From Moraxella nasicaprae (GTDB lineage: Bacteria > Pseudomonadota > Gammaproteobacteria > Pseudomonadales > Moraxellaceae): 32,000 bases of DNA. Every line of letters begins with the position of its first letter. Position 1 is the stretch's first letter. Shown here piece after piece: positions 2,990 to 21,164 of the stretch. Both the position numbers and the translations under genes were made by a program. The stretch covers positions 420,001-452,000 of the forward strand of contig NZ_CP089977.1 of assembly GCF_025643275.1 (NCBI RefSeq), in the 5' to 3' direction. The notes below the pieces were generated by a model. That model saw only the letters and a program-made list of their open reading frames with translations, did no database searches and was not told the DNA's origin.

Positions 2990-4306
2990 TCAAAAACTTT
3001 TGCCTATCAAAGCAGTCAGACTCTCACCAATGGTATGAAATGACCCAAACGCCACAATCAAATCATCATCGCTACTTGCTTTAATCACCCCTTGTGTTGC
3101 CTGTGCTAGATTGTCATAGGTAATGATACATTCTGGCTCTATTTCTTTGTTTAAGTAATCAAGCAAACACGGCAAGCTCATCGCTCGCTGATGGTCAATG
3201 GCGGCAATGTGCCACATCGCCTGAGGCAATGCTTGCTCATCAATGGCTTGACGCACCTGCTTAATGACCGACGGCACATCTTTATCGCCCAGCATTGAAA
3301 ATAGGAAAAACAGATTGGCATTAGGTTTATTGGTTTGATATTCTTTCCAATATCTTGTTAGTTGTTCTAATAAAAAAATGATGCCAGCCTCATTATGCCC
3401 CACATCAAAAATCCATTGGCGATTTTCTAAGACCCTTTTGTCAAATCTTCCTGCCAACTGCACCTGTTGTAATCCTGTCTTGATGGCATTCACGGAGATA
3501 TTTAGCGAACTTGCCAGCACAGCACTCACGGCATTGGCGGCATTTTTTAAAGACAGATTCGGCTTAGGTAGTGATGCGGTGATGGCAGATAAGCCATAAG
3601 TCCAATTCTCTAAATTTTCTTGATAGTCATAATGCACGCCAAGCTGACAAACCTTGGCATCTAAGGATTTGGCTTGCTCATAAACACTTGCCGGCATTTG
3701 ATATTCCCCCAAAATCACGGGAATATCCGCTCTCATGATACCTGCTTTTTCTCGTCCAATATCATCAAGATTATCGCCCAACCAATCCACATGGTCAATG
3801 CCGATATTGGTAATGACCGCCAAATCAGGGTCAATGATGTTCACAACATCAAGTCGTCCACCCAACCCAATTTCTAGCACCCAAACATCACAATTTGCTT
3901 GTAAAAATAACCAAAAAGCCGCCAAAGTTGTCATTTCAAAGAATGACAGGCTCACTCCCTTGTTCAGCCTTGCCTGTTCTATCACTTCAAATGCTTTGAT
4001 AAGATTATCTTCACTTATCTCGACACCATCAATGCGTACTCGCTCAGTGAATGACACCAGATGTGGCGATTGATATAGGGCGGTTTTTAGCCCTGATGCT
4101 TGGCAAATTTGAGCAATGGTCGCTGTGGTAGAACCTTTACCATTAGTACCCGCTACTGTAAACACATAGGGGCATTTGCCCTGCCAAGCAGATTTTAACA
4201 GCCCAAGTTCATCAGCCACAGGCAACACTCTATCTAGCCCCATGTCAATGGCAGACACATGAATACTGCCCATATATTCTAGCCACTGGCTTAGATTTTT
4301 TTTCAT
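2990..4306 (-). CDS. folC: Bifunctional folylpolyglutamate synthase / dihydrofolate synthase
   Basis: It has the Mur-ligase P-loop VAGTNGKGST, plus EIGLGGRLD and ITNIGIDH motifs. It lies downstream of accD, in the conserved order. The start is taken at MKKNLSQWLEY (ATG at 4306). Confidence 0.9.
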   Translation of the reverse strand: MKKNLSQWLEYMGSIHVSAIDMGLDRVLPVADELGLLKSAWQGKCPYVFTVAGTNGKGSTTATIAQICQASGLKTALYQSPHLVSFTERVRIDGVEISEDNLIKAFEVIEQARLNKGVSLSFFEMTTLAAFWLFLQANCDVWVLEIGLGGRLDVVNIIDPDLAVITNIGIDHVDWLGDNLDDIGREKAGIMRADIPVILGEYQMPASVYEQAKSLDAKVCQLGVHYDYQENLENWTYGLSAITASLPKPNLSLKNAANAVSAVLASSLNISVNAIKTGLQQVQLAGRFDKRVLENRQWIFDVGHNEAGIIFLLEQLTRYWKEYQTNKPNANLFFLFSMLGDKDVPSVIKQVRQAIDEQALPQAMWHIAAIDHQRAMSLPCLLDYLNKEIEPECIITYDNLAQATQGVIKASSDDDLIVAFGSFHTIGESLTALIGKSF

Positions 4307-4387
4307 AGTCAATCCTAGCTTTCTACAACAACAAACACCCAAAACCAACGAATTGGCTTTGGGTGGGTTCATATTCCAATGTAATGT

Positions 4388-5281
4388 TTAAGCAGCGTTT
4401 GCTTTGGTTAATTTTGCCAAAATACGATGCGTGGTGTCAATCAGCTGATGACGATGCACCACCATATCCACCGTACCTTTTTCTAACAAAAATTCTGCTC
4501 GTTGAAATGGCTCATCAAGCACTTCACGCACCGTTTGCTCAATCACTCGCTTACCTGCAAAGCCAATCATCGCACGAGGTTCAGCAATGTGTACATCGCC
4601 CAGCATGGCAAGGCTTGCGGTCACACCACCATAGACAGGATTAGTGAGAATTACAACATAAGGCACACCTGCCAAACGAAGTCGTTCAATGGCTGCTGAG
4701 GTACGAGCCATCTGCATCAAAGACAGTAAGCCCTCCTGCATTCTAGCACCGCCAGAAGCAGCAAAACACACCAAAGGTTTACGCTCAGCAAGGGCTTTTT
4801 CGGCGGCCTGCACAAAACGGTCGCCCACCACCGAACCCATCGAACCGCCCATAAAGCGAAAATCAAAGGCACAAGCGATGATGTCTAAATTTTTCAGCTT
4901 ACCGCTCATCACCACCAAGCCCTCACTCTCACCCGTCTTTCTTTGGGCTTCCAGCATTCGCTCTGGGTATGGCTTGCTATCAACAAATTGTAGCGGGTTG
5001 CCAGCATTGAACTCTTGCCCCAGCTCTTTATCCACGCTATCCAAAAACCACTCCAAGCGTTTGCGAGCAGTCATGGGCAGGTGGTGGTCGCACTCTGGGC
5101 AAACATTTTGGTTCAAAATCAATGCCGTATTGGTTGTCATTGCATGACACTCAGGGCATTCGGTTGATGGTTCGGTGGCAACCGCTGATAAGGTTGGCAC
5201 GGTACTTTGCTTAATGCCTGGCACGCTACGATTTAGCCAAATGGTCGGCTCTGTGCTGGCAATGTCGGCTTGATTTGACAT
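4388..5281 (-). CDS. accD: Acetyl-CoA carboxylase carboxyltransferase beta subunit
   Basis: It has an N-terminal Cys4 zinc finger (CPECHA...CPECDHH) and the carboxyltransferase core (FMGGSMGSVVGDRF, ASGGARMQEG). The start is taken at MSNQADI. Confidence 0.9.
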   Translation of the reverse strand: MSNQADIASTEPTIWLNRSVPGIKQSTVPTLSAVATEPSTECPECHAMTTNTALILNQNVCPECDHHLPMTARKRLEWFLDSVDKELGQEFNAGNPLQFVDSKPYPERMLEAQRKTGESEGLVVMSGKLKNLDIIACAFDFRFMGGSMGSVVGDRFVQAAEKALAERKPLVCFAASGGARMQEGLLSLMQMARTSAAIERLRLAGVPYVVILTNPVYGGVTASLAMLGDVHIAEPRAMIGFAGKRVIEQTVREVLDEPFQRAEFLLEKGTVDMVVHRHQLIDTTHRILAKLTKANAA

Positions 5282-5376
5282 AAAGAATCCTATTTTGTGC
5301 AATTTTGCAATTTGACATAGTTTACACTTGTATTATTTATTTGGCAAATAAATTTTATGGCAAGTGTTTACATTTA

Positions 5377-6195
5377 TCATCGCTCATCAATCGCAGCTCG
5401 TAGCTCGTCCATTTTTGCCAAGATATTTGCTTTCGCCTGTTCGATTTTTGCCAAATCATCGCCCACATCAGCAAAGTGTCTGACAAGCTCACTCCCCACA
5501 ATCACCCCATCGGCAAACTTGGCAACCGCCTTTGCACTCTCGCCATCACGAATGCCAAACCCAACACAAATCGGCAAGTCGGTATCCGCCTTAATCGCTT
5601 GTACTTGGCGGGCGACTTCGTCAGTGTCCAGTGCCTTTGAGCCTGTAACGCCCTTAACCGACACATAATAAATAAAGCCCGAACCGTGTTTTAGCACCGC
5701 TTTTCTACGCTCGCTTTGGGTGGTGGGGGCAAGTAGGAAAATTTGGTTAATCTCTTTATCAGCGAGTTTGGCGGATACACTTTCATCAGTCTCATTGGGC
5801 GGTAAATCCACCAACAGTAAGCCGTCCACGCCATTTGCCTCACACAGATTTAAAAAATCATCATAGCCGATAATCTCAACTGGATTAAGATAGCCCATTA
5901 AAAGCACTGGCGTGGTGGTGTTCGTCTTACGAAACTGCCCCACCATTTGCACGGCTTGGCGTGTAGAAGTGCCATTTGTCAATGCTCGCTCGCCAGCCAA
6001 TGAAATGACAGAGCCGTCCGCCATTGGGTCGCTAAATGGCAAGCCAATCTCAATGATGTCCGCTCCGTGTGCCACCAAATCGTGCATCAAATCCACCGTA
6101 ATAGCAGGATTTGGGTCGCCTGCCATAATGTAGGGGATTAGGGCTTTTTTGTTTTGCTGTTTTAAAGTCGCAAAAGTTTCTTGAATTCGGGTCAT
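5377..6195 (-). CDS. trpA: Tryptophan synthase alpha chain
   Basis: The sequence MTRIQETFATLKQQNKKALIPYIMAGDP...IEIGLPFSDPMADG...GFIYYVSVKGVTG...VGFGI is classic TrpA. A GGAGAG RBS lies 8 nt upstream of the ATG at 6195. Confidence 0.92.
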   Translation of the reverse strand: MTRIQETFATLKQQNKKALIPYIMAGDPNPAITVDLMHDLVAHGADIIEIGLPFSDPMADGSVISLAGERALTNGTSTRQAVQMVGQFRKTNTTTPVLLMGYLNPVEIIGYDDFLNLCEANGVDGLLLVDLPPNETDESVSAKLADKEINQIFLLAPTTQSERRKAVLKHGSGFIYYVSVKGVTGSKALDTDEVARQVQAIKADTDLPICVGFGIRDGESAKAVAKFADGVIVGSELVRHFADVGDDLAKIEQAKANILAKMDELRAAIDER

Positions 6196-6219
6196 TTTAA
6201 GCACTCTCCAATCATTAAA

Positions 6220-6966
6220 TCATATTTTTATTGACATAATTTTTCTGTATAGCTCATCAAAGGCTTTAATATTTTCTGGGCTTTCTGAAAGGTTTCGCAT
6301 ATACGAGTCTACATCTTCATACTTGATACTCAAAAACTCATCAAAAAATGCCTTACCACGCCTTATGTTTGTGTTTTCAGGTACATAAATATTGCCTTTC
6401 ATCTTCTTATTGTTGAAGAAAAATAAAATCGGTTCAATTTTAGCGTTTGGGAACTCACGTACCAAATAGGCGTAAGTTTTGATGAATTTACGGTTAATAT
6501 CAACAAATTTTCCCGTGTTGTGGTCGTCATTATACTTTACTTCAAGGTAGTAAATAACGCCTGTTTGCTTGTTTTGAAAAAGAATATCAATATCGTGCTT
6601 GATTGTTGAAAGATTGGTATCATTATCGTTTGCAATGGCGTATAACAATTTGGGAAATTCTTCATCAAGATTTATGGTGTTGTACTGGCAAGAACTTATG
6701 AAATTGTTGATTCTTGTGTCATTTTGGGTAGATAACTGAAAACTATTGCTTTTCTTACTGCTATAATCTTCCAAAATGGTATAACGCCCATCATTCTGGA
6801 TTAAATTTTTCAAGAAAAAAATAGCAAAACAATCAAGATTGATGTTAAATTTTTTCATTATATCAAAAAAGCCATAATCTTGATTTTTATTTTTCTGAAT
6901 GTATAATTTTCTTTTATTTAAACAACAGCTTAAAGAAAAATTAAATGCTTTATCTATATCTTGCAT
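6220..6966 (-). CDS. Hypothetical protein, probable type II restriction-endonuclease-like PD-(D/E)XK nuclease
   Basis: This is a 248-aa ORF in a very AT-rich island. A candidate catalytic core is HDIDILFQNKQTGVIYYLEVKYNDDHNTGK, which fits D-x13-E-V-K. It lies downstream of a methyltransferase remnant. I recognise no closer family. Confidence 0.45.
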   Translation of the reverse strand: MQDIDKAFNFSLSCCLNKRKLYIQKNKNQDYGFFDIMKKFNINLDCFAIFFLKNLIQNDGRYTILEDYSSKKSNSFQLSTQNDTRINNFISSCQYNTINLDEEFPKLLYAIANDNDTNLSTIKHDIDILFQNKQTGVIYYLEVKYNDDHNTGKFVDINRKFIKTYAYLVREFPNAKIEPILFFFNNKKMKGNIYVPENTNIRRGKAFFDEFLSIKYEDVDSYMRNLSESPENIKAFDELYRKIMSIKI

Positions 6967-6976
6967 AGATTACTCC

Positions 6977-7702
6977 TTATCCAAATATTAAATTATCTAT
7001 ATCTTTTGTTTTAATTGTACTATCATATAGCATTTGAATTTCATCATAATTGATAAACCTAAACCTTTCTTTATTATTTTTGTGAATTTCCAAATTTATT
7101 GTTTTTTCAAATTTTTTTCGATGTTTTTCTGGAGCAATGATAAAAAATTCTGAGCGAAAATTCTGTAACTGCAAGCAACGATTAAAAGCCCCATTTAATG
7201 TTCCAATACTATCCACCACTTCAAATATTTTTTGAGGAAATACCAGCCCTTTTTTGTTTAACCAAATAACATCAATTCTTGTTGCCTCCTCCAAAATGTT
7301 GTCATATGAAAATTTTGGCAGAGTTTGTAATGATGTTAAATCCTTTAGTTTAAGATTGTCCCGATAAAATGATGAAGGATCAGCTGTGTAAGTATGGTAA
7401 CCATTGAAATTACCTAACTCAATACATAGACCTTCAATAAAAGAATGCAATCTTATATCTTCTTGAAGTTTAGGCTTTTGCTCCACAATGTAGTCTTGCA
7501 AAGCATAAATACCCACACCTATTTTTTTAAACAATTTACGCTCACCAACTTCACGATATAAGACACCTCGAATGCCAGCTTGCCATTGAATGGAACTTTT
7601 GATACTGGGATAATACTTTTCAATATTATTGTAGATAATATCAAGTGTTGCAACACCCCCATTATCTTCCATTATCCTGAGAATTGCCTGAATTTTTGTC
7701 AT
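6977..7702 (-). CDS. Hypothetical protein with an N-terminal winged-helix (Mrr_N/HARE-HTH-like) domain and a C-terminal PD-(D/E)XK-like domain
   Basis: The N-terminus (MTKIQAILRIMEDNGGVATLDIIYNNIEKYY...WQAGIRGVLYREVGERKLFKKIGVGIYAL) has the pattern of restriction-enzyme wHTH sensor domains. The C-terminus (HSFIEGLCIELGNFNGY...RIDVIWLNKKGLVFPQKIFEVVDS) resembles D...E-V-x-S nuclease cores. Its ATG lies 19 nt after the point where the methylase remnant frame ends. Confidence 0.45.
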   Translation of the reverse strand: MTKIQAILRIMEDNGGVATLDIIYNNIEKYYPSIKSSIQWQAGIRGVLYREVGERKLFKKIGVGIYALQDYIVEQKPKLQEDIRLHSFIEGLCIELGNFNGYHTYTADPSSFYRDNLKLKDLTSLQTLPKFSYDNILEEATRIDVIWLNKKGLVFPQKIFEVVDSIGTLNGAFNRCLQLQNFRSEFFIIAPEKHRKKFEKTINLEIHKNNKERFRFINYDEIQMLYDSTIKTKDIDNLIFG

Positions 7703-7721
7703 AGGTAACTTGCCACAAATT

Positions 7722-8023
7722 TCACATTAAAAATAAAGAACCAATAACCCAAATTGAACCTGTTGGCCTTAAAACCCTTTTGCATTCTGTTAGCCATTCT
7801 TCACAAAAAGAGTCATACTGTTTAAAATCATTAAACTTGTCCCATTCATCTTCTACGCCTGAAAATTTTTCGCCATTAGTGCGTAGTAATTCCCACTCCG
7901 TTTGCATAAAATACGGTGGGTCAGCAAAGATTAAATCAATGCTATTACTGGGTATTTTTTTAAATTTTCTATACAATCCCCTTTTAGGATTGTATTAAGA
8001 AATTGATTTATATTGTCTTTCAT
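7722..8023 (-). pseudogene. 5' remnant of a beta-class (CcrM/M.HinfI-like) DNA methyltransferase, both frameshifted and truncated
   Basis: The track ORF (7722..7976) reads ...IPSNSIDLIFADPPYFMQTE...DEWDKFNDF..YDSFCEEWL.ECKRVLRPTGSIWVIGS and then stops after about 84 aa. Hand translation from the ATG at 8023 in the neighbouring frame gives MKDNINQFLNTILKGDCIENLKK. That joins the DPPY frame only if the A7 run (T7 on the plus strand, 7955-7961) were A8. No catalytic or AdoMet-binding C-terminal two-thirds is present. Confidence 0.75.
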
Positions 8024-8313
8024 AATTCTTGCTCATCTTTAATGATAAACTTTTTCAAAGTTTCATCAAAATAAATCCGCTCATCAAAAATATCGTATTT
8101 TTCCCAGTCAATATATTGATGTTCGGGTTTGGTTCTTAAATCTTGCAAATAAGCCACCTCCGCAAGACAATCATCAATATCCTCTTGCGTTAATGGCTCT
8201 TTGGCATAATGAGAAAACCGCCCAAATAAAGTATCATTTTCTACCACTTTTTGAATGGTGTCATTATTATTTGCAATGCCATACAAATCTTCAATGGAAT
8301 TAAATTTTTCCAT
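8020..8313 (-). CDS. Small, strongly acidic hypothetical protein (97 aa)
   Basis: The ORF is rich in D and E (EDIDDCLAEVAYLQDL, DWEKYDIFDERIYFDE). Its ATG shares one base with the trpB stop (TAATG at 8315-8311). Its TGA overlaps the methylase-remnant ATG (ATGA at 8023-8020). Confidence 0.6.
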   Translation of the reverse strand: MEKFNSIEDLYGIANNNDTIQKVVENDTLFGRFSHYAKEPLTQEDIDDCLAEVAYLQDLRTKPEHQYIDWEKYDIFDERIYFDETLKKFIIKDEQEL

Positions 8314-9515
8314 TATAATTCAATCCCATCCACTTTCATCACCGTATGCAAATCTTTATCGCCACGCCCTGATAAATTGATGACAATGGATTTGTCCTGC
8401 CCCAATGTCTTGGCAAGTTTCAATCCATAAGCCACAGCGTGCGAGCTTTCTAGGGCTGGGATAATGCCCTCCGTCTTGGTCAAAATACGAAACGCCGCCA
8501 ATGCCTCATCATCGTTAATCACGCCATATTCCACACGCCCCATATCCTTTAAAAAGCTGTGTTCAGGCCCAACCCCAGGGTAGTCAAGCCCCGCAGAAAT
8601 GCTATGCGTTTCAATAACTTGCCCTTCATCGTCTGCCATCAGATAGGTGCGATTGCCGTGCAGGACACCCACACGCCCTGCATTTAGGGGGGCTGAATGC
8701 TTGCCTGTCTCAATCCCATATCCGCCAGCTTCTACGCCATAGAGCTTGACGGTTTCGTCATTTAAAAACTCATAAAACAGCCCCATTGCATTTGAGCCAC
8801 CGCCCACGCACGCCACACAGGCATCGGGCAATTTGTCTTCAAATTGCAAATGTTGCAGACGAGCCTCACGCCCAATAATCGCCTGAAAATCACGCACAAG
8901 TAGCGGATAAGGGTGTGGACCTGCCACCGTGCCGATGACATAATAGGTGCTATCCACATTGGTAACCCAGTCTCGCATCGCTTCGTTCATTGCGTCTTTC
9001 AATGTCCGAGAACCGCTCGTAACAGGCACAACAGTCGCCCCAAGTAGTCTCATACGATAGACATTCATCTTTTGGCGTTCCACATCGTCCGCCCCCATAT
9101 AGACCACGCATTCTAAGCCCAATCTAGCAGCGATGGTTGCCGTTGCCACGCCGTGCTGACCTGCCCCTGTTTCGGCGATAATGCGTTTTTTGCCGACAAG
9201 TTTCGCCAAAAGTGCCTGCCCAATGGTATTATTGACCTTATGAGCCCCTGTGTGGTTTAAATCCTCTCGTTTTAGATAAATCTTAGCCCCACCAGTTTCT
9301 GCTGTTAAGCGTTTGGCAAAATACAGCGGTGTGGGACGGCCGACATAGTTTATCAAATCGTCATTATATTCTTTCCAAAATTCAGGGTTATTTTTAACGC
9401 TTAAATAAATGCGTTCTAATTCTTCAAGTGCCGTCATCAAAGTTTCAGAAACAAATCGTCCGCCGTGAATGCCAAAATGACCTGTGGGGTTTGGGTATTG
9501 GGTAAAGTCTGTCAT
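8313..9515 (-). CDS. trpB: Tryptophan synthase beta chain
   Basis: The sequence [15 protein letters not shown]...[16 protein letters not shown] (PLP lysine)...GGGSNAMG...[11 protein letters not shown] is unambiguous TrpB. Confidence 0.95.
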
Positions 9516-9550: not shown

Positions 9551-9754
9551 TCATTGATTTTTTTCAAAATAACTTTGTGCCTGAGAACTTAATTCATCTA
9601 GCGTTAAATCTTCAAATAATTTTTCTTGCCATTTGGTATAATCAAAACTTTCACGGCGAATTAAAGCAATAAATCGCTCTGCCTGAACTTCACCTAATGC
9701 TTTAATTAGGCTTTGCATACCTGTTAGGCGAATTTCACTATCACTAATCATCAT
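9551..9754 (-). CDS. Putative antitoxin partner of the upstream PIN-domain protein
   Basis: This is a 67-aa ORF overlapping the PIN gene stop by ATGA (9754-9751). The ERFIALIRRESFDYTKWQ motif matches small partners that I recall being encoded after this PIN subfamily. Confidence 0.55.
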   Translation of the reverse strand: MMISDSEIRLTGMQSLIKALGEVQAERFIALIRRESFDYTKWQEKLFEDLTLDELSSQAQSYFEKNQ

Positions 9755-10182
9755 TTAATTTCCTGTATAAAATCAATTGGGTTTAATGCAATAATATCAT
9801 TATTTGCTTGCATTTTATTCAACAATTTATTATCAGTTGATAAAAAGTATTCTGCTTGTGCATTGACAGCACAGGCAATATGCAAAGCATCTTTAATTTT
9901 GATATTTTGCTCCATTAAGATTTTGGCATAAGTTTTTATTTCTTGATTTTCACCAATCAAAACAGTGGCTAATTTTTGCCATTTTTCTATGGCAAATCTA
10001 CGCTCAAAAAATGGGTTTTGGCTATTTTCATAAGCCAAAATATAAGACCAAACCAAATCCAATTCACCATTTTTTATTAACTCTTGAATATGTAATTTGC
10101 TTTCGGTTTCTAATCGCACTCTGATATTATCTTGATTGTCAAAAGGGCGATTAAACATACAGTTATCCAAATAGACAAGCAT
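9751..10182 (-). CDS. PIN-domain ribonuclease toxin (VapC-like)
   Basis: The sequence MLVYLDNCMFNRPFDNQ...SYILAYEN...DALHIACAV...FLSTDNKL places the four acidic PIN residues at the expected spacing (D6, E~52, D~98, D~116). Confidence 0.7.
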   Translation of the reverse strand: MLVYLDNCMFNRPFDNQDNIRVRLETESKLHIQELIKNGELDLVWSYILAYENSQNPFFERRFAIEKWQKLATVLIGENQEIKTYAKILMEQNIKIKDALHIACAVNAQAEYFLSTDNKLLNKMQANNDIIALNPIDFIQEIK

Positions 10183-16361: not shown

Positions 16362-18440
16362 ATGCACTTTAATCCAAGTCGCGCTCTTGAATTATTAAGA
16401 CAAGGTTCAAGTAATCCAAATGCTAAATTTCGTGATGGACAAGAGGAGGCTATTACTCATCTTGTTACCAGCACACAAAGACTGCTGGTAGTGCAAAAAA
16501 CAGGCTGGGGTAAAAGTTTTGTTTATTTTATTGCCACACAATTATTACGAGAATCAGGTGCTGGCATTACGCTACTTATCTCGCCATTATTAGCGTTAAT
16601 GCGTAACCAAATTGCGGCAGCAAAAAGAATGGGCTTAAAGGCGGTAAGTATCAATTCGGAAAATACCGATGATTGGAAGCAAATAGAACAAGAGATTATT
16701 TTAGGACAAGTGGATATCGTTCTAATCTCACCTGAACGATTGGCAAATCAGAACTTTATCAATAATGTTTTGAGTCAAATTGCTGGAAATATTGGTTTAT
16801 TGGTTATTGATGAAGCACACTGTATTTCAGATTGGGGACACGATTTTCGTCCAGATTATCGTTTAATTGAACGAATTATTAAAAATTTACCACCCAATCT
16901 GCGTGTTTTGGCAACTACAGCAACCGCCAATCAGCGTGTAATGGATGACCTTATTGCCATTCTAGGACCCAATATTGCGGTTTCAAGAGGAGATTTAAAT
17001 CGCCCATCATTAACCTTACAAACGATTAAATTGCCCAGCCAAATTGAACGTTTGGCGTGGCTGGCTGAACAACTGTCTCATTTGCAAGGTAGCGGTATTA
17101 TTTATACTTTAACAGTGAGAGATGCCAATCAAGTTGCTGATTGGCTTAAATTGCAAGGTTTTGATGTGGAAGCCTATACAGGCGAAAGTGGTGATAAAAG
17201 GATTGAATTAGAAGATAAACTACTTAATAATCAAGTCAAAGCATTGGTTGCCACAACTGCTTTGGGAATGGGATATGATAAGCCTGATTTGGGATTTGTC
17301 ATTCATTATCAAATGCCAAATTCTGTTGTTGCTTATTATCAACAAGTTGGACGAGCTGGGCGAGCATTATCGAACGCTTATGGCGTTTTATTGAGCGGTA
17401 TAGAAGATGATGAAATCAGTGCGTTTTTTATTGACAGTGCTTTCCCAAAACCAAATGAAGTGAATCAAATTTTAAATGCATTAAAACAATCGCCAAATGG
17501 ATTATCATCAAATGAATTGCAAGACAACATCAATTTAAGTCAAGGCAGAATCAGCAAAGCATTAAAAGTCTTATCATTAGAATCGCCAGCACCTTTGGTT
17601 AAGCAAGACACAAAATGGCAATTAACTTCCGCTACATTATCTACTGATTTTTGGCAAAGGGTTAATCGCCTCACAGAATTAAGAAAAAATGAACATCAGC
17701 AAATGAAAAATTATGTTGATTTACCATTTGGTCAGCATATGGCATTTTTAGTTAATGCACTTGATGGTGATACACAACAAATTATGCCACCCCAATTACC
17801 ACCATTACCAACTTTAATTCACCCAACTTTCGTTCAACAAGCCAGTGAATTTTTGCACAGAAGTAATGTGATTATTGAACCAAGAAAGAAATGGGCAACA
17901 GGTGGTTCAACACAATTTTCGCAAAAAGGTAATATCAATCCAAATTTTCAAGCAGAGGAAGGACGTGCATTATCCATTTGGGGCGATGCTGGCTGGGGCA
18001 AATTGGTCAAACAAGGAAAGTATCAAGATAATCATTTTGCAGATGAATTGGTGAATGCCTGTTGTGAAATGATTGAGCGTTGGCAACCCAATCCAAAACC
18101 AACTTGGGTAACTTGCGTGCCGTCTTTGCGACACCCTGATTTGGTGCCTGATTTTGCTAGGCGGTTGGCAATGAAATTGGGGTTGCCATTTATGCCAATT
18201 ATCCAAAAAATCAAAGAAACTGAGCCACAAAAAATGATGCAAAATAGCCATATGCAAGCCCATAATTTAGATGGCGTATTTCAGTTGAGTGATAATCCAT
18301 TGTCAGAACCCGTTTTATTGATTGATGATATGGTGGATTCTCGTTGGACTTTAACCATATGTAGCTATCTTTTAAAATTTAATGGTAGTGGTGCAGTCTT
18401 TCCACTTGTACTTTCTCAAACCAGCAATCAAGGTGAATAA
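16362..18440 (+). CDS. RecQ-family superfamily-2 helicase fused to a C-terminal ComF/phosphoribosyltransferase-like domain (PsyrT/RqlH-like putative toxin)
   Basis: It has Walker A QKTGWGKS, the RecQ-type DEAH box VIDEAHCISDWGHDFRPDY, TATA, ATTALGMGYDKPD and motif VI YYQQVGRAGR. The C-terminal roughly 115 aa (WVTCVPSLRHPDLVPDFARRLA...PVLLIDDMVDSRWTL) have a PRTase/ComF-like layout. Confidence 0.85.
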   Translation: MHFNPSRALELLRQGSSNPNAKFRDGQEEAITHLVTSTQRLLVVQKTGWGKSFVYFIATQLLRESGAGITLLISPLLALMRNQIAAAKRMGLKAVSINSENTDDWKQIEQEIILGQVDIVLISPERLANQNFINNVLSQIAGNIGLLVIDEAHCISDWGHDFRPDYRLIERIIKNLPPNLRVLATTATANQRVMDDLIAILGPNIAVSRGDLNRPSLTLQTIKLPSQIERLAWLAEQLSHLQGSGIIYTLTVRDANQVADWLKLQGFDVEAYTGESGDKRIELEDKLLNNQVKALVATTALGMGYDKPDLGFVIHYQMPNSVVAYYQQVGRAGRALSNAYGVLLSGIEDDEISAFFIDSAFPKPNEVNQILNALKQSPNGLSSNELQDNINLSQGRISKALKVLSLESPAPLVKQDTKWQLTSATLSTDFWQRVNRLTELRKNEHQQMKNYVDLPFGQHMAFLVNALDGDTQQIMPPQLPPLPTLIHPTFVQQASEFLHRSNVIIEPRKKWATGGSTQFSQKGNINPNFQAEEGRALSIWGDAGWGKLVKQGKYQDNHFADELVNACCEMIERWQPNPKPTWVTCVPSLRHPDLVPDFARRLAMKLGLPFMPIIQKIKETEPQKMMQNSHMQAHNLDGVFQLSDNPLSEPVLLIDDMVDSRWTLTICSYLLKFNGSGAVFPLVLSQTSNQGE

Positions 18441-18443
18441 GAA

Positions 18444-19682
18444 ATGTTTATTTCAGATAATACCAAAGCCATTTTACTTTTAACTGCACCATTATTATTG
18501 GGAAAAAGTCAAAATAATATTAAATTATTAAGCAATAAAGAATATCATCAGTTAGCTGTTTATTTAAAAAATCATCATAAACAGCCTGCGGATTTACTGG
18601 GTAACGAATTAAGTGATATTTTAGCTGATTATGGAAAATTAGAATATGAGCGAATCCAGCAATTATTACAAAGAGGTTTTTTATTAAGCCAAACTCTTGA
18701 TTATTGGTATTCTCGCAATATTTGGGTCATCAGTCGTGCAGATAAAACTTACCCAAGTCGTTTAAAAATTCGTTTAGGAGAACAAGCACCACCAATATTA
18801 TATGGTTGTGGCGATGTTAATTTACTCAATTTTGGCGGGATAGCAATTGTAGGCTCTCGCAATATTGACGATGAATTGATTGCTTATACACAAAATATTG
18901 CTCATCTAGCTGCACAATCTGGCAAAATGGTCGTTTCTGGTGGAGCAAAAGGAGTAGATTTAGCAGCAATACAAGAGGCTTTACAGGTTGGTGGGGTTGT
19001 TTGTGGTGTGTTGGCAGATAGTTTGGAGAAAATGGCTTTGAATGCAGTAAATCGCTCTGCATTACAAGAAAATCGTTTAGTGCTTATTTCTGCGTGCGAC
19101 CCCAAATCTCGTTTTATGGTTGGCAATGCAATGCAACGCAATAAATATATTTATGCACTTTCGGACATTGGCTTGGTTGTTAATTCTGATTTAAATAAAG
19201 GGGGAACTTGGGCTGGTGCTGTTGAGCAATTAGACAAATACAAGCACATTCCGATTTATGTCCGTTCAACTGGTACTGAAAATGCAGGATTAAATGCCTT
19301 GGTAAATAAAGGAGCATTATGGTGGGATAATCCAAGAGATACACAATCATTTTTAGATATTTTTAACGGCAAATTTGTATCAAATATGAATACACCAAAA
19401 CCACAAACAAATTCATCCCCTAATGATAAATCAATTACACATCCGAATCTTGATTTATCTCCAGAAAAAGAGTTATTTTTATTGGTTAAAAAACTGATTG
19501 AGCAAAATTTGCAAGAACCTAAAAAAGAAAAAGAGCTGGCTGAATTATTGGCAGTTTCCAGTTCTCAAATCCGAATATGGCTTGAACGCTTAATTAAAGA
19601 AGATGTGGTTGTTAAACAAAATAAGCCTATACGATATGCCCTGCGTTCAAAATCTGAGAATTTGGAATTATTTCCTTCTTAA
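18444..19682 (+). CDS. DprA/Smf-fold (SLOG) protein with a C-terminal winged helix (PsyrA/RqlI-like putative antitoxin)
   Basis: The sequence YPSRLKIRLGEQAPPILYGCGD...IAIVGSRN...VVSGGAKGVDLAA...GNAMQRNKYIYALSD...GGTWAGAVE is the DprA Rossmann core. The C-terminus (KELAELLAVSSSQIRIWLERLIKEDVV) looks like a wHTH. It starts 3 nt after the helicase stop and has an AAGGTGA RBS. Confidence 0.85.
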   Translation: MFISDNTKAILLLTAPLLLGKSQNNIKLLSNKEYHQLAVYLKNHHKQPADLLGNELSDILADYGKLEYERIQQLLQRGFLLSQTLDYWYSRNIWVISRADKTYPSRLKIRLGEQAPPILYGCGDVNLLNFGGIAIVGSRNIDDELIAYTQNIAHLAAQSGKMVVSGGAKGVDLAAIQEALQVGGVVCGVLADSLEKMALNAVNRSALQENRLVLISACDPKSRFMVGNAMQRNKYIYALSDIGLVVNSDLNKGGTWAGAVEQLDKYKHIPIYVRSTGTENAGLNALVNKGALWWDNPRDTQSFLDIFNGKFVSNMNTPKPQTNSSPNDKSITHPNLDLSPEKELFLLVKKLIEQNLQEPKKEKELAELLAVSSSQIRIWLERLIKEDVVVKQNKPIRYALRSKSENLELFPS

Positions 19683-19696
19683 TGGGAAAAACAAAA

Positions 19697-20587
19697 ATGA
19701 ACCTCAACACCCTCCGTCTTTTCGTTGCCGTTATCCAGCACGGCAGTTTGTCCAAAGCCTCCGAACGACTCAATGTGCCGATTGCGACCATTAGCCGTCA
19801 AATTGCCGATTTGGAAAAAGAGCTTAATATTCAACTCTTTGACCGCCAAAAATCAGGCGTTAAACCCACAATGGCAGGGCAACGCCTGTATGAACAGGTG
19901 CATTTGTCCATTGAACAGCTTGCCAATGCCAAAGAAGTACTCTTTGAAGAGCAAGGCAATTTAAAGGGTAAATTACGCCTGTCGGCAAGCCCTGCCTGCG
20001 AGCCTGTTTTGGCGTGGATAGCTGATTTTCAGGCAGCCTACCCACAGGTACAGGTGCATTGCACGCTGACCGACCGTCTTTTGGATTTGTCGGCAGACGG
20101 CATTGATGTGGCGTTTCGGATTGGGCAGTTACACGGCGAACAATTTATCGCCAAAAAAGTGGGGCAAATCGGCAGCAAATGGGTGGCACACCCTGATTTA
20201 TTGACACGATTGGGTACACCCAACACCATCAAGGATTTGAAAAATTTCCCCATTGCCGCTTGGGCAAAAAATGAAGCAAGCGTCATCACGCTAGGGGTTG
20301 GCAGACAAGCGGTGGAAATTCCCTATCTTTTTGCCAGCAATGACAGCTATGCCATTGAATATATGGCAAAACAGGGCAAAGCAGTGGCTCTGCTTGCCGA
20401 CAGCACGGTGGATAGACTCGTGGCAGAAAATGGCTTGGTGGAGGTCTTAGGCGAGACAGAAAACCCCAAATTTGATTTGACGATGATTTATGCCGCCCAT
20501 CGTTATCCGTCTAGCATTGTACGGGCGTTTGTGGGGTTTGTGCTTGATAGGGTAAATAATGAGACTTTGGACGATTCAGCCATTTGA
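19697..20587 (+). CDS. LysR-family transcriptional regulator
   Basis: The sequence MNLNTLRLFVAVIQHGSLSKASERLNVPIATISRQIADLEKELNIQLFDR has the LysR HTH signature. I prefer the start at 19697 over the ATG at 19682, which overlaps the upstream stop. Confidence 0.85.
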   Translation: MNLNTLRLFVAVIQHGSLSKASERLNVPIATISRQIADLEKELNIQLFDRQKSGVKPTMAGQRLYEQVHLSIEQLANAKEVLFEEQGNLKGKLRLSASPACEPVLAWIADFQAAYPQVQVHCTLTDRLLDLSADGIDVAFRIGQLHGEQFIAKKVGQIGSKWVAHPDLLTRLGTPNTIKDLKNFPIAAWAKNEASVITLGVGRQAVEIPYLFASNDSYAIEYMAKQGKAVALLADSTVDRLVAENGLVEVLGETENPKFDLTMIYAAHRYPSSIVRAFVGFVLDRVNNETLDDSAI

Positions 20588-21164
20588 CTGGTATGAAACA
20601 CTGATGAGTGATGGCGTGATTTATGCCAAAGGTGAGCTGATTGATTGGTTAAATGAAGACAATTTTAAAACTGCCTATCATTGGCTGATGGGGCAAATGA
20701 CACATAAGATCGGCAAACCGCCAATGCCTGATGTTTATCCGATTTGGGCGTGGTATCAATGGCAAAACGCCAAGAAGAACAAGCCTGATTTAAGATTTGG
20801 TGGCATTGGCATCAAAGGTCAAAAAAGCGTTTTATTGGAAATTGAAAAAAGCGATGATGAAGTCTTATTAAGCGATTTTGATTTATGGCATTGTGTATTA
20901 AATGAATGGCATATTGCCGATAACGAACAAGAAAGCGATTGGTTTGATGATTGTCTAAGGCAAGCGGGGATTGATTTTTGCGATAAACATCTTTATCCGC
21001 CCAATATTCGCCAGATTATGCAAAACAGCTGGCAAAAAATCTTTGATATGGATTATTGTGCAGAATACAGCACCAATTCATTTTCACAAAAAAGCATTCA
21101 AGCGACTTTTTGGCAATTGTCCATTGATGAGATTAAAAGCGTGCGGACTTTTATCGCCAAATAA
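20559..21164 (+). CDS. DUF3841-like hypothetical protein
   Basis: This is a 201-aa ORF starting MRLWTIQPFDWYETL, an N-terminus I associate with DUF3841. It overlaps the end of the LysR gene by 29 nt. Confidence 0.5.
   Translation: MRLWTIQPFDWYETLMSDGVIYAKGELIDWLNEDNFKTAYHWLMGQMTHKIGKPPMPDVYPIWAWYQWQNAKKNKPDLRFGGIGIKGQKSVLLEIEKSDDEVLLSDFDLWHCVLNEWHIADNEQESDWFDDCLRQAGIDFCDKHLYPPNIRQIMQNSWQKIFDMDYCAEYSTNSFSQKSIQATFWQLSIDEIKSVRTFIAK

Follow-up and report, generated by a model that had tools for sequence, protein, structure and literature searches.

The 32,000-nucleotide stretch of the Moraxella nasicaprae chromosome analyzed here (contig NZ_CP089977.1, positions 420,001 to 452,000; referred to as the window, in whose numbering coordinates are given) contains a low-GC island (29 to 32% GC, compared with 48% in its flanks) on the minus strand between the tryptophan synthase genes trpB and trpA. 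In order, the island carries a small gene, orf97, an 84-codon open reading frame (ORF) with a DPPY motif (7722 to 7976), and two co-oriented ORFs, orf241 (6977 to 7702, 241 aa) and orf248 (6220 to 6966, 248 aa), which are separated by 10 nt as described in an earlier note on this DNA; orf248 stops 15 nt upstream of the trpA start. The note saw orf241 and orf248 as a compact and novel pair of nucleases, possibly working with orf97. That observation is real but misassigned, and the island is best described as a HinfI-type restriction-modification (R-M) operon that has been overwritten by a mobile cassette coding for a predicted winged-helix (wH) nuclease, orf241.

The orf248 product scores 298.8 bits (E 3e-89) against the NCBIfam equivalog model NF045831 (HinfI family type II restriction enzyme), for which the cut-off is 175 bits, and also matches the PADLOC REase_II model PDLC03491 (E 5e-111), and the statement that it has no recognizable domain beyond a catalytic core does not hold. 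The core itself (DIDILF...YYLEVK, of the PD-(D/E)XK type) is present as reported, although its spacing is D-x14-EVK and not the x13 claimed. Both alignments start late (NF045831 positions 49 to 264 of 264 and PADLOC positions 47 to 262 of 262), and orf248 does not match the family over its full length with a native N-terminus. Its database relatives form two groups, one of three 248-aa proteins that align end to end and the other of many 262- to 272-aa proteins that are 82 to 88% identical and cover just 87% of orf248. HinfI-family genes elsewhere normally adjoin an intact methyltransferase gene (M) and are without orf241.

Upstream of orf241 is a remnant of such an M gene, which matches PF01555 at positions 1 to 54 of 221 (E 2e-16) and the NCBIfam CcrM model at positions 14 to 91 of 350, as well as PADLOC MTase_II, and shares 98% identity with the 5' end of the intact M gene (361 aa) in L050, an allele that occupies this trpB/trpA site in a related Moraxella. 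Read from its native ATG, the remnant reaches a stop after 30 codons, and between the window and L049, a cassette allele at this site in another Moraxella species, it has accumulated 10.5 nonsynonymous to 0.5 synonymous changes. A HinfI-family orf248 together with a truncated ORF of the CcrM/M.HinfI class indicates a HinfI-type R-M operon with a dead M; the 84-codon ORF is assigned as the stump of the cognate M of orf248, and orf248 as the restriction gene (R) of a GANTC-class operon, with GANTC specificity predicted from HinfI family membership. The operon resembles the HinfI system (R.HinfI/M.HinfI, GANTC; NF045831, PF09520) in its orf248 score, D...EVK core, CcrM/M.HinfI-class stump, and M-then-R gene order, which is also that of the intact HinfI-type alleles L050 and L046, but differs in that M is reduced to ∼96 frameshifted codons and R has a cassette-derived N-terminus in place of its native one of ∼50 aa. 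The HinfI system itself is ordinary. No functional GANTC methyltransferase was found adjacent to orf248, where there is only the frameshifted stub, and a Pfam scan of window ORFs (the island plus ten of the larger ones) revealed no further DNA methylase; the note was correct that the pair has no intact methylase, ATPase, or specificity subunit beside it and that restriction-type nucleases without a live methylase do not form a standard type I, II, or III layout. The window has 47 GANTC sites (∼115 expected from block shuffles), and an active HinfI-type enzyme without M would therefore be lethal. As a separate observation, GATC is extremely depleted in the window (5 observed and ∼114 expected) and GGATC/GATCC occurs twice (∼48 expected, by the same shuffles), and the GATC depletion hints at a long history of GATC-specific restriction acting on the Moraxella lineage.

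The L050 allele consists of orf97, M, and an R gene for 272 aa, followed by the trpA start, and its alignment with the window defines the cassette. By blastn, window positions 8242 to 7735 correspond to L050 positions 1 to 509 (98%), and window positions 6783 to 6170 correspond to L050 positions 1532 to 2145 (95%), with nothing aligning between them, such that the window has 951 unrelated bp where L050 has 1022 bp. The replaced segment is roughly M codons 97 to 361 and R codons 1 to 85, and three quarters of M is gone. The cassette has a GC content of 29% and a GGAG in its spacer, and its 5' junction is identical in three cassette alleles, those of the window, L049, and L140. Codons 1 to 61 of orf248 (6784 to 6966) are cassette derived and codons 62 to 248 (6220 to 6783) are native; ∼33 of the 61 cassette codons are unrelated to HinfI, and the remainder form a strongly diverged HinfI-like stretch, so that the donor was probably another HinfI-type operon already containing the cassette. 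These alignments show that the 951-bp cassette overwrote the M/R junction of a HinfI-type operon, removing most of M and the start of R, and the idea of a new two-nuclease module gives way to a remodeled R (R'; orf248), a stump of its M, and an orf241 gene that arrived on the cassette. The same anatomy recurs in AlwI-type cassette alleles described below, and the mobile unit is accordingly delimited as the leader, orf241, and a new start and N-terminus for R. The coordinates of these features are collected in Table 1.

Table 1. Features of the trpB-trpA island and its flanks in the window, with related small ORFs at other loci
Feature	Coordinates	Strand	Remarks
Cassette, foreign, 951 bp	6784..7734	-	32-nt leader, orf241, 10-nt spacer with ribosome-binding site, 61 new codons fused in frame to R; from blastn against L050
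orf241, 241 aa	6977..7702	-	wH at residues 1-67 (∼7502-7702); restriction endonuclease-like C-terminal domain at residues ∼82-218 (∼7049-7459; Pfam NmeDI_C)
orf248 (R'), HinfI-family type II restriction endonuclease, 248 aa	6220..6966	-	NF045831, PADLOC REase_II
Remnant (∼96 codons) of CcrM/M.HinfI-like N6-adenine methyltransferase	7735..8023	-	DPPY motif; ends after 'IWVIGS'
A7 tract, 1-nt deletion frameshifting the methylase remnant	7955..7961	-	A8 in L049; AAAAAGAA in intact L050
orf97, acidic 97-aa protein	8020..8313	-	GC 32%; members at ≥90% identity in Moraxella spp.
trpB (tryptophan synthase beta), upstream host flank	8313..9515	-	400-aa ORF; PALP domain in L049 homologue
trpA (tryptophan synthase alpha), downstream host flank	5377..6204	-	ORF; Trp_syntA domain in L049
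Small ORF at orf241 stop, other loci	L023 5729-5992; L026 1448-1711; L027 5723-5902; L031 5768-5989		includes Psychrobacter coccoides

The HinfI family also shows courses other than cassette entry. At L136/L137 (2731 to 4594), M is intact (359 aa) and R is split into 61-aa and 197-aa ORFs, and this HinfI-type operon lies inside a housekeeping operon (cdsA ... dxr) and represents a different decay route. HinfI-family database proteins of 184 to 240 aa were considered as extra cassette alleles and rejected, as in P0147 R is frameshifted and the adjoining M intact, and P0199 belongs to a normal M-R pair.

The N-terminus of orf241 is modeled by AlphaFold2 (AF2) as helix-strand-helix-helix-helix-wing over residues 1 to 67 and matches forkhead-type wH profiles (E ∼0.01), and HARE-HTH (PF05066) is recorded for two homologues. 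The winged helix proposed earlier is therefore upheld, but its likeness to Mrr-type enzymes is not (no Mrr_N or Mrr_cat match in Pfam, NCBIfam, or PADLOC); in the same way, the IDVIW and EVVDS residues picked out in the C-terminal domain are conserved, but the comparison with Uma2 finds no match in the same three collections. Nor is orf241 an orphan, as it has 551 close homologues, all of ∼240 aa, with PF27126 (NmeDI_C) present in all of the best 120 of the 551; the assignment of this domain to orf241 is taken from these homologues and from the L049 and L140 gene calls labeled NmeDI_C and not from a score of orf241 itself. The protein is ∼60 to 65% identical to proteins of Treponema, Bacteroidota, Kapaibacteria, Acidaminococcaceae, Hyphomicrobiales, Lentisphaeria, and Psychrobacter, and its subfamily spans Spirochaetes, Bacteroidota, Firmicutes, and Proteobacteria at ∼60% identity. 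An exhaustive search places 402 clusters (at 50% identity) in the wider family, including longer proteins sharing the C-terminal domain alone and others sharing the N-terminal domain alone. Positions 230 to 331 of a PADLOC REase_II model, whose 351 positions equal the length of R.NmeDI, match orf241 residues 132 to 233 (E 8.6e-6). There is no PHROGs match for orf241 and none of its relatives is found in 2.9 million IMG/VR viral contigs, from which we conclude that the gene is not phage-borne. The 90%-identity cluster with orf241 also holds unrelated 248-aa HinfI-type proteins and HinfI fragments (Haemophilus influenzae, Moraxella nasovis), which is probably a clustering artefact from fused or overlapping gene calls.

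Conserved residues in the C-terminal domain are H86, E90, D108, D144 (in IDVIW), and E161-V-V-D-S, with D144 invariant and E161 nearly invariant among relatives. The AF2 model of this domain (predicted local distance difference test [pLDDT] 85.7) has an alpha-beta-beta-beta-alpha-beta order, the one expected for restriction-endonuclease folds, with D144 opening the second strand and E161 in the third. The third catalytic position is E in the wider family (FEVEHS), which is a BamHI-like D...ExE arrangement, and V in the orf241 subfamily (FEVVDS in orf241, with D164 adjacent, and FEV(V/I)DS throughout the subfamily); catalytic competence, judged from these motifs, is plausible but not assured. 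With the full-length model (pLDDT 67), Foldseek returns weak wH matches alone, among its results being a weak local likeness of the wH to that of DpnI (probability 0.54 to 0.60), and a PDB-chain sequence search with both proteins gave nothing usable for the nuclease domains.

Homologues of orf241 were surveyed at 37 loci (34 distinct sites), and a scan with one genome for each species supplied all but 3 of these; because most of the R-M contexts belong to one Dam/AlwI family, the context counts are phylogenetically non-independent. At ∼24 of the 34 distinct loci the homologue lies at the M/R junction of an N6-adenine system, and at least one flanking gene is cut short at every such junction but one (L034). 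Upstream neighbors include 13 N-terminal fragments (65 to 165 aa) of one Dam-like methylase subfamily, whose intact members have 282 to 289 aa, two N6_N4 methylases, one of which is truncated, and several HinfI/TdeIII-family R genes or fragments. Downstream, 14 of 36 neighbors are RE_AlwI, those of L023 and L026 are N-truncated RE_AlwI, and L035, whose operon runs R then M, has a Dam-like gene that lacks its 5' part. Truncated methylases adjoin orf241 or its homologue in the window and at ∼17 other loci, and the identifiable methylases are of the D12 or N6_N4 amino-methyltransferase classes, mostly N6-adenine, with no C5-cytosine methylase family among those listed at cassette loci. The same kind of cassette is present at the M/R (or R/M) junctions of several R-M families in at least four phyla. 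The expectation that orf241 and orf248 homologues would occur together is borne out in one direction, in that orf241 homologues do lie beside restriction genes, both RE_AlwI and the HinfI/TdeIII families, but HinfI-family genes elsewhere normally do without orf241.

About one third of the loci have no R-M context. In L004 to L006 (6001 to 6726) the orf241 homologue is alone between nadA and a GH32 gene, and in L041 (Xylanibacter caecicola, ∼5001 to 5726) it lies between the large and small ribonucleotide-reductase genes, as assigned from ORF sizes; at these solitary loci the spacers are 29 to 100 nt and R-M remnants are absent. A second form of the cassette 3' end has a small ORF (59 to 87 aa, no family) starting at the orf241 stop; these small ORFs are homologous to one another and occur at four loci (Table 1).

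The AlwI-type alleles reproduce the remodeling of R seen in the window. A metagenome scan with an RE_AlwI alignment gave 80 closest loci, of which two have orf241 and 78 do not; 71 of these 78 carry a full-length Dam-like M followed by R, and M is shortened or missing at a contig end in the other seven. Intact RE_AlwI has a highly conserved N-terminal segment of ∼65 residues (MARIDSKVIFVTTSPRTPAKMIPE...SARDRINRAPKALGF), and in every cassette-allele RE_AlwI that segment is replaced by ∼38 unrelated residues, for example MKEHLEIFCSFWLQLEPYDERVEFAENF.... The R' start is −20 to +5 nt from the orf241 stop at all AlwI-type loci and 10 nt after it in the window, and all 14 RE_AlwI genes beside orf241 are open, coding for 521 to 534 aa. 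Two further ideas about these operons were set aside: three intact Dam-like family members checked as models of the pre-insertion operon are orphan or prophage methylases and uninformative, and the missing half of M does not lie downstream of R as part of a split gene, as the ORFs 3' of R differ between loci.

Cassettes have moved between diverged alleles. L018 and L019, in two different Spirochaete genomes whose outer flanks are unrelated, have 100% DNA identity over orf241, and this decays gradually on both sides to 70 to 80% through the M stump and R; synonymous divergence (dS) is 0.014 for orf241 and 0.81 and 1.03 for the flanks. Between the window and L140, dS is low within the cassette (0.035 for orf241, 0.07 for the cassette-derived codons of orf248) and higher outside it (0.36 for the M stump, 0.81 for the native codons of orf248), and the L016 R gene is 95% identical to an intact-allele R but 80 to 85% identical to other cassette-allele R genes. 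Near-identical cassettes within diverged flanks (L018/L019 and window/L140) point to spread by recombination via the R-M flanks. The whole island behaves likewise, as between the window and L049 its dS is 0.01 to 0.10 and that of trpA and trpB is ∼1.2, indicating exchange of the island between Moraxella species at the same site. On these divergence patterns, the cassette and the whole island have been repeatedly and recently transferred by homologous recombination into diverged alleles.

One consequence of recombinational spread is that a low ratio of nonsynonymous to synonymous rates (dN/dS) in the flanks is mostly a legacy of the time when they were working genes. In the window-L049 comparison, which covers changes after acquisition, orf248 has 10 nonsynonymous to 7 synonymous changes (p = 0.02 for constraint) and orf241 has 5 to 4. 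The N-terminal peptide of R', which is found only in cassette alleles, has dN/dS of 0.08 to 0.69 in 13/13 computable pairs with dS of 0.3 to 2.8, a noisy estimate as the peptide spans 31 codons in this test, and it is consistent with purifying selection on the cassette-derived N-terminus. Pairwise identities of orf241 and R' are also correlated (r = 0.87), and R' seems to be translated and retained, which a simple model of a dead R does not predict. The Dam-like stumps have dN/dS of 0.07 to 0.13, but their status as functional mini-proteins was rejected, as their lengths vary from 65 to 165 aa, they are as near to intact methylases as to each other, and in the one clean post-acquisition comparison the stump is neutral and frameshifted.

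The reading that we favor, although tentatively, is that a modification-sensing nuclease cassette swaps an R-M allele for a methylase-free one, in the manner of DpnI/DpnII or Neisseria drg. In this scheme orf241 would be a stand-alone modification-sensing endonuclease (type IV or IIM-like), in which the invariant winged helix reads a DNA feature and the PD-(D/E)XK-like NmeDI_C domain cuts. Such an enzyme would conflict with a resident adenine methylase and could persist solely where M has been destroyed; the cassette would destroy M and disarm R in one step, giving an alternative, methylase-free allele of the R-M locus. The remodeled R' would be retained, probably with a role alongside orf241, either as a partner subunit or as a dominant-negative protein that blunts post-segregational killing. 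The wH reading surface is nearly invariant everywhere, which a single common DNA feature fits better than many homing sites would. More speculatively, a 5'-G-m6A step is common to the known targets of these R-M families (GATC, GANTC, GGATC, and GAGTC).

Fusions of wH and endonuclease domains include experimentally established m6A-dependent type IV enzymes, with neighboring methylases found inactivated (PMC11037411). In such fusions (FcyTI, HhiV4I, and Ahi29725I among others; PMC11037411), a wH is joined to a restriction-type nuclease and there is usually no partner methylase. The orf241 protein likewise joins a wH to a restriction-type nuclease domain, its solitary occurrence parallels that of type IV enzymes, and its loci have no active cognate methylase beside the gene, L023 having the lone full-length neighbor; it differs in that an N-terminal forkhead-like wH with NmeDI_C is not among the published fusions. 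DpnI and DpnII of Streptococcus pneumoniae are described as mutually exclusive alleles at one chromosomal locus (Lacks et al. 1986, reviewed in PMC2993543), and the likeness lies in the alternation of classical R-M and methylase-free nuclease alleles, exchanged homologously through shared flanks in a naturally transformable host. Here, however, the R-M gene remnants are themselves the homology arms, so that the cassette can enter the same R-M family anywhere, the old R is kept and remodeled, and orf241 is unrelated in sequence to DpnI, with a putative methyl-dependence. The Neisseria dam-replacing gene drg/NmeBII (Pfam DRP family) replaces an orphan dam gene and is DpnI-like (PMC516771, PMC4269198). 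It too is a low-GC endonuclease gene in a competent Gram-negative bacterium, has taken the place of an adenine methylase gene, and is polymorphic among strains, but orf241 displaces M within complete R-M operons and trims R as well, and orf241 has no match to Pfam DRP or DpnI at E values up to 1. R.NmeDI, a 351-aa type II enzyme that recognizes RCCGGY and cuts on both sides (PMC2095814), has a C-terminal nuclease domain homologous to that of orf241 (NmeDI_C) but a different N-terminal part and a cognate C5 methylase, and it cuts unmodified DNA.

Several points weigh against an allele swap by a modification-sensing enzyme. The wH of orf241 is forkhead/HARE-like and not demonstrably DpnI-like, and for HARE-HTH domains a case has been made that the marks they read are on cytosine and not on adenine (PMC11037411). 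The third residue of the canonical catalytic set is absent from the orf241 subfamily, and the nuclease could be inactive; moreover, the top Foldseek matches of the C-terminal domain model are PD-(D/E)XK nucleases (Can2, NucS, Nt.BspD6I, and Mus81/FANCM) but all non-significant (best E 0.08). The retention of R', its translational coupling, and its constraint are left unexplained by a pure type IV model. An R' still active on unmethylated DNA would oblige the host to methylate its sites, at odds with an enzyme that reads this very mark. The window has 47 GANTC sites and no second methylase among the ORFs scanned. Finally, L023 has an apparently full-length N6_N4 methylase (4057 to 5001) beside its orf241 homologue, the sole R-M locus of this kind, although its motif IV reads DPAY in place of the usual DPPY/F, which may be an inactivating change. 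Modification-dependent activity of orf241 remains the leading hypothesis.

A related possibility, in which our confidence is low, is that the cassette is a dedicated R-M converter that uses R-M genes as portable homology arms, deletes M, and rebuilds R by adding an N-terminal peptide of its own, with R' either neutralizing wild-type R or cutting together with orf241. Neutralization of residual wild-type R would allow escape from post-segregational killing.

It is about equally doubtful that orf241 is a selfish, free-standing homing-type endonuclease gene parasitizing mobile R-M operons, whose product would cut intact M-R alleles within the segment lost on cassette entry and convert them, flanks included, through repair from the cassette copy. 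Homing genes such as mobE of phage T4, between nrdA and nrdB, are likewise promoter-less nuclease ORFs between or within conserved genes, and the ribonucleotide-reductase gene gap is a classic homing-gene site in phages. The presence/absence polymorphism at identical sites, the co-conversion-like identity gradients centered on orf241 in two independent systems, the small content of the cassette beyond a promoter-less ORF co-oriented with its host operon, the conservation of orf241 across phyla, and the copies between nadA and GH32 and, at one locus, in the ribonucleotide-reductase gap all agree with homing. However, orf241 lies outside the classical homing families, and the helix and wing predicted to read DNA hardly vary among the five kinds of genomic context compared (HinfI-, Dam/AlwI-, N6_N4/AlwI-, and TdeIII-type as well as non-R-M), which share no target sequence, whereas recognition surfaces should differ between unrelated target loci. 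Further, ∼1 kb is replaced rather than a site being inserted into, destruction of M with R surviving should kill the recipient, the viral contigs contain no relatives, and transformation with subsequent selection would produce such gradients just as well.

Less likely again is that a type II system has given rise to a new restriction unit of two proteins, orf241 and R', in which the R' N-terminus docks to orf241 or R' acts as a dominant negative. The orf241 wH would provide recognition or control, and its nuclease-like domain would work as a pair with the cleavage domain of R' in the manner of the BspD6I small subunit and nickase; the C-terminal domain does have a weak structural resemblance to Nt.BspD6I (template modeling score, ∼0.35 to 0.40), and the lack of a canonical third catalytic residue would suit such pairing. 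The tight coupling of the R' start to the orf241 stop, the purifying selection on the cassette-only peptide, the correlated identities, and the open reading frames of all 14 RE_AlwI neighbors are in keeping with a joint function. Against this, about one third of the loci have orf241 without any R', R' is badly truncated in L023 and L026, two structurally unrelated R families (HinfI type IIP and AlwI type IIS) would both need adapting, and much of the selection signal in the R' body predates conversion.

A decaying R-M system with orf241 as a functionless passenger, or an ordinary type II orf241 with its methylase elsewhere in the genome, is quite improbable. The frameshifted and neutrally evolving M stump, the different decay of other HinfI-type loci such as L136 with its split R, and the presence of NmeDI_C in the bona fide type II enzyme R.NmeDI (PMC2095814) are what these explanations would lead one to expect. 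They sit poorly with an orf241 that is intact, ∼60% identical across phyla, with invariant motifs, and recently spread into diverged alleles in two systems, and with a full-length methylase directly beside it at only one R-M-type locus, L023.

The small undescribed defense or addiction module of orf97, orf241, and orf248 suggested in the earlier note is very improbable: the three do share one low-GC island without terminators, but the trio co-occurs in this Moraxella lineage only, other copies of the R-M unit lack orf97 (which is conserved on its own in Moraxella), orf248 belongs to a known system as its R gene, and the intact L050 allele and the HinfI-type loci without orf241 largely refute it.

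The inclusion of orf97 in any such module fails on its distribution, as relatives at ≥90% identity occur in M. lacunata, M. ovis, and M. oblonga protein clusters and it is absent beside the homologous M-R unit in [Pasteurella] mairii. It has no match in Pfam, NCBIfam, PADLOC, or PHROGs. Its stop overlaps the M start (ATGA), and it is a separate gene outside the R-M unit proper. No terminator-like sites were found in a scan of positions 6000 to 8600, and promoter-like matches in the island are at chance level; the island is probably transcribed as part of the trp operon. Just upstream of trpB (9551 to 10182, minus strand), two overlapping ORFs, one of 67 aa and the other a PIN-domain ORF of 143 aa (E 6e-4), look like a toxin-antitoxin pair, and the PIN gene is split into two ORFs in L049. 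Further away, a region of 36 to 39% GC (16362 to 19682, plus strand) codes for a 692-aa DEAD/ResIII helicase and, 4 nt later, a 412-aa DprA/SLOG-like protein, with a DUF3841 protein close by (20559 to 21164); the helicase and DprA/SLOG-like pair could be a defense or DNA-processing module.

The cassette merits experimental follow-up, and one consequence is for annotation, as "HinfI family" and "AlwI family" genes beside orf241 homologues are N-terminally rebuilt and without a methylase and should not be taken for active type II systems. The loci also offer a natural experiment in R-M loss without cell death, through simultaneous loss of M and remodeling of R, and the wH–NmeDI_C family is a candidate reader of DNA adenine modification. 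If the cassette is a converter, a classical type II system would become a methylase-free system of opposite or altered specificity, by an undescribed route for overwriting and repurposing defense loci across phyla. If it is instead a modification-sensing allele swap, as we tentatively favor, it would add a widespread, multi-phylum case to the mere handful of alternative restriction alleles (DpnI/DpnII and drg), and R-M operons, usually viewed as addictive and hard to displace, would be repeatedly overwritten by a small nuclease cassette.

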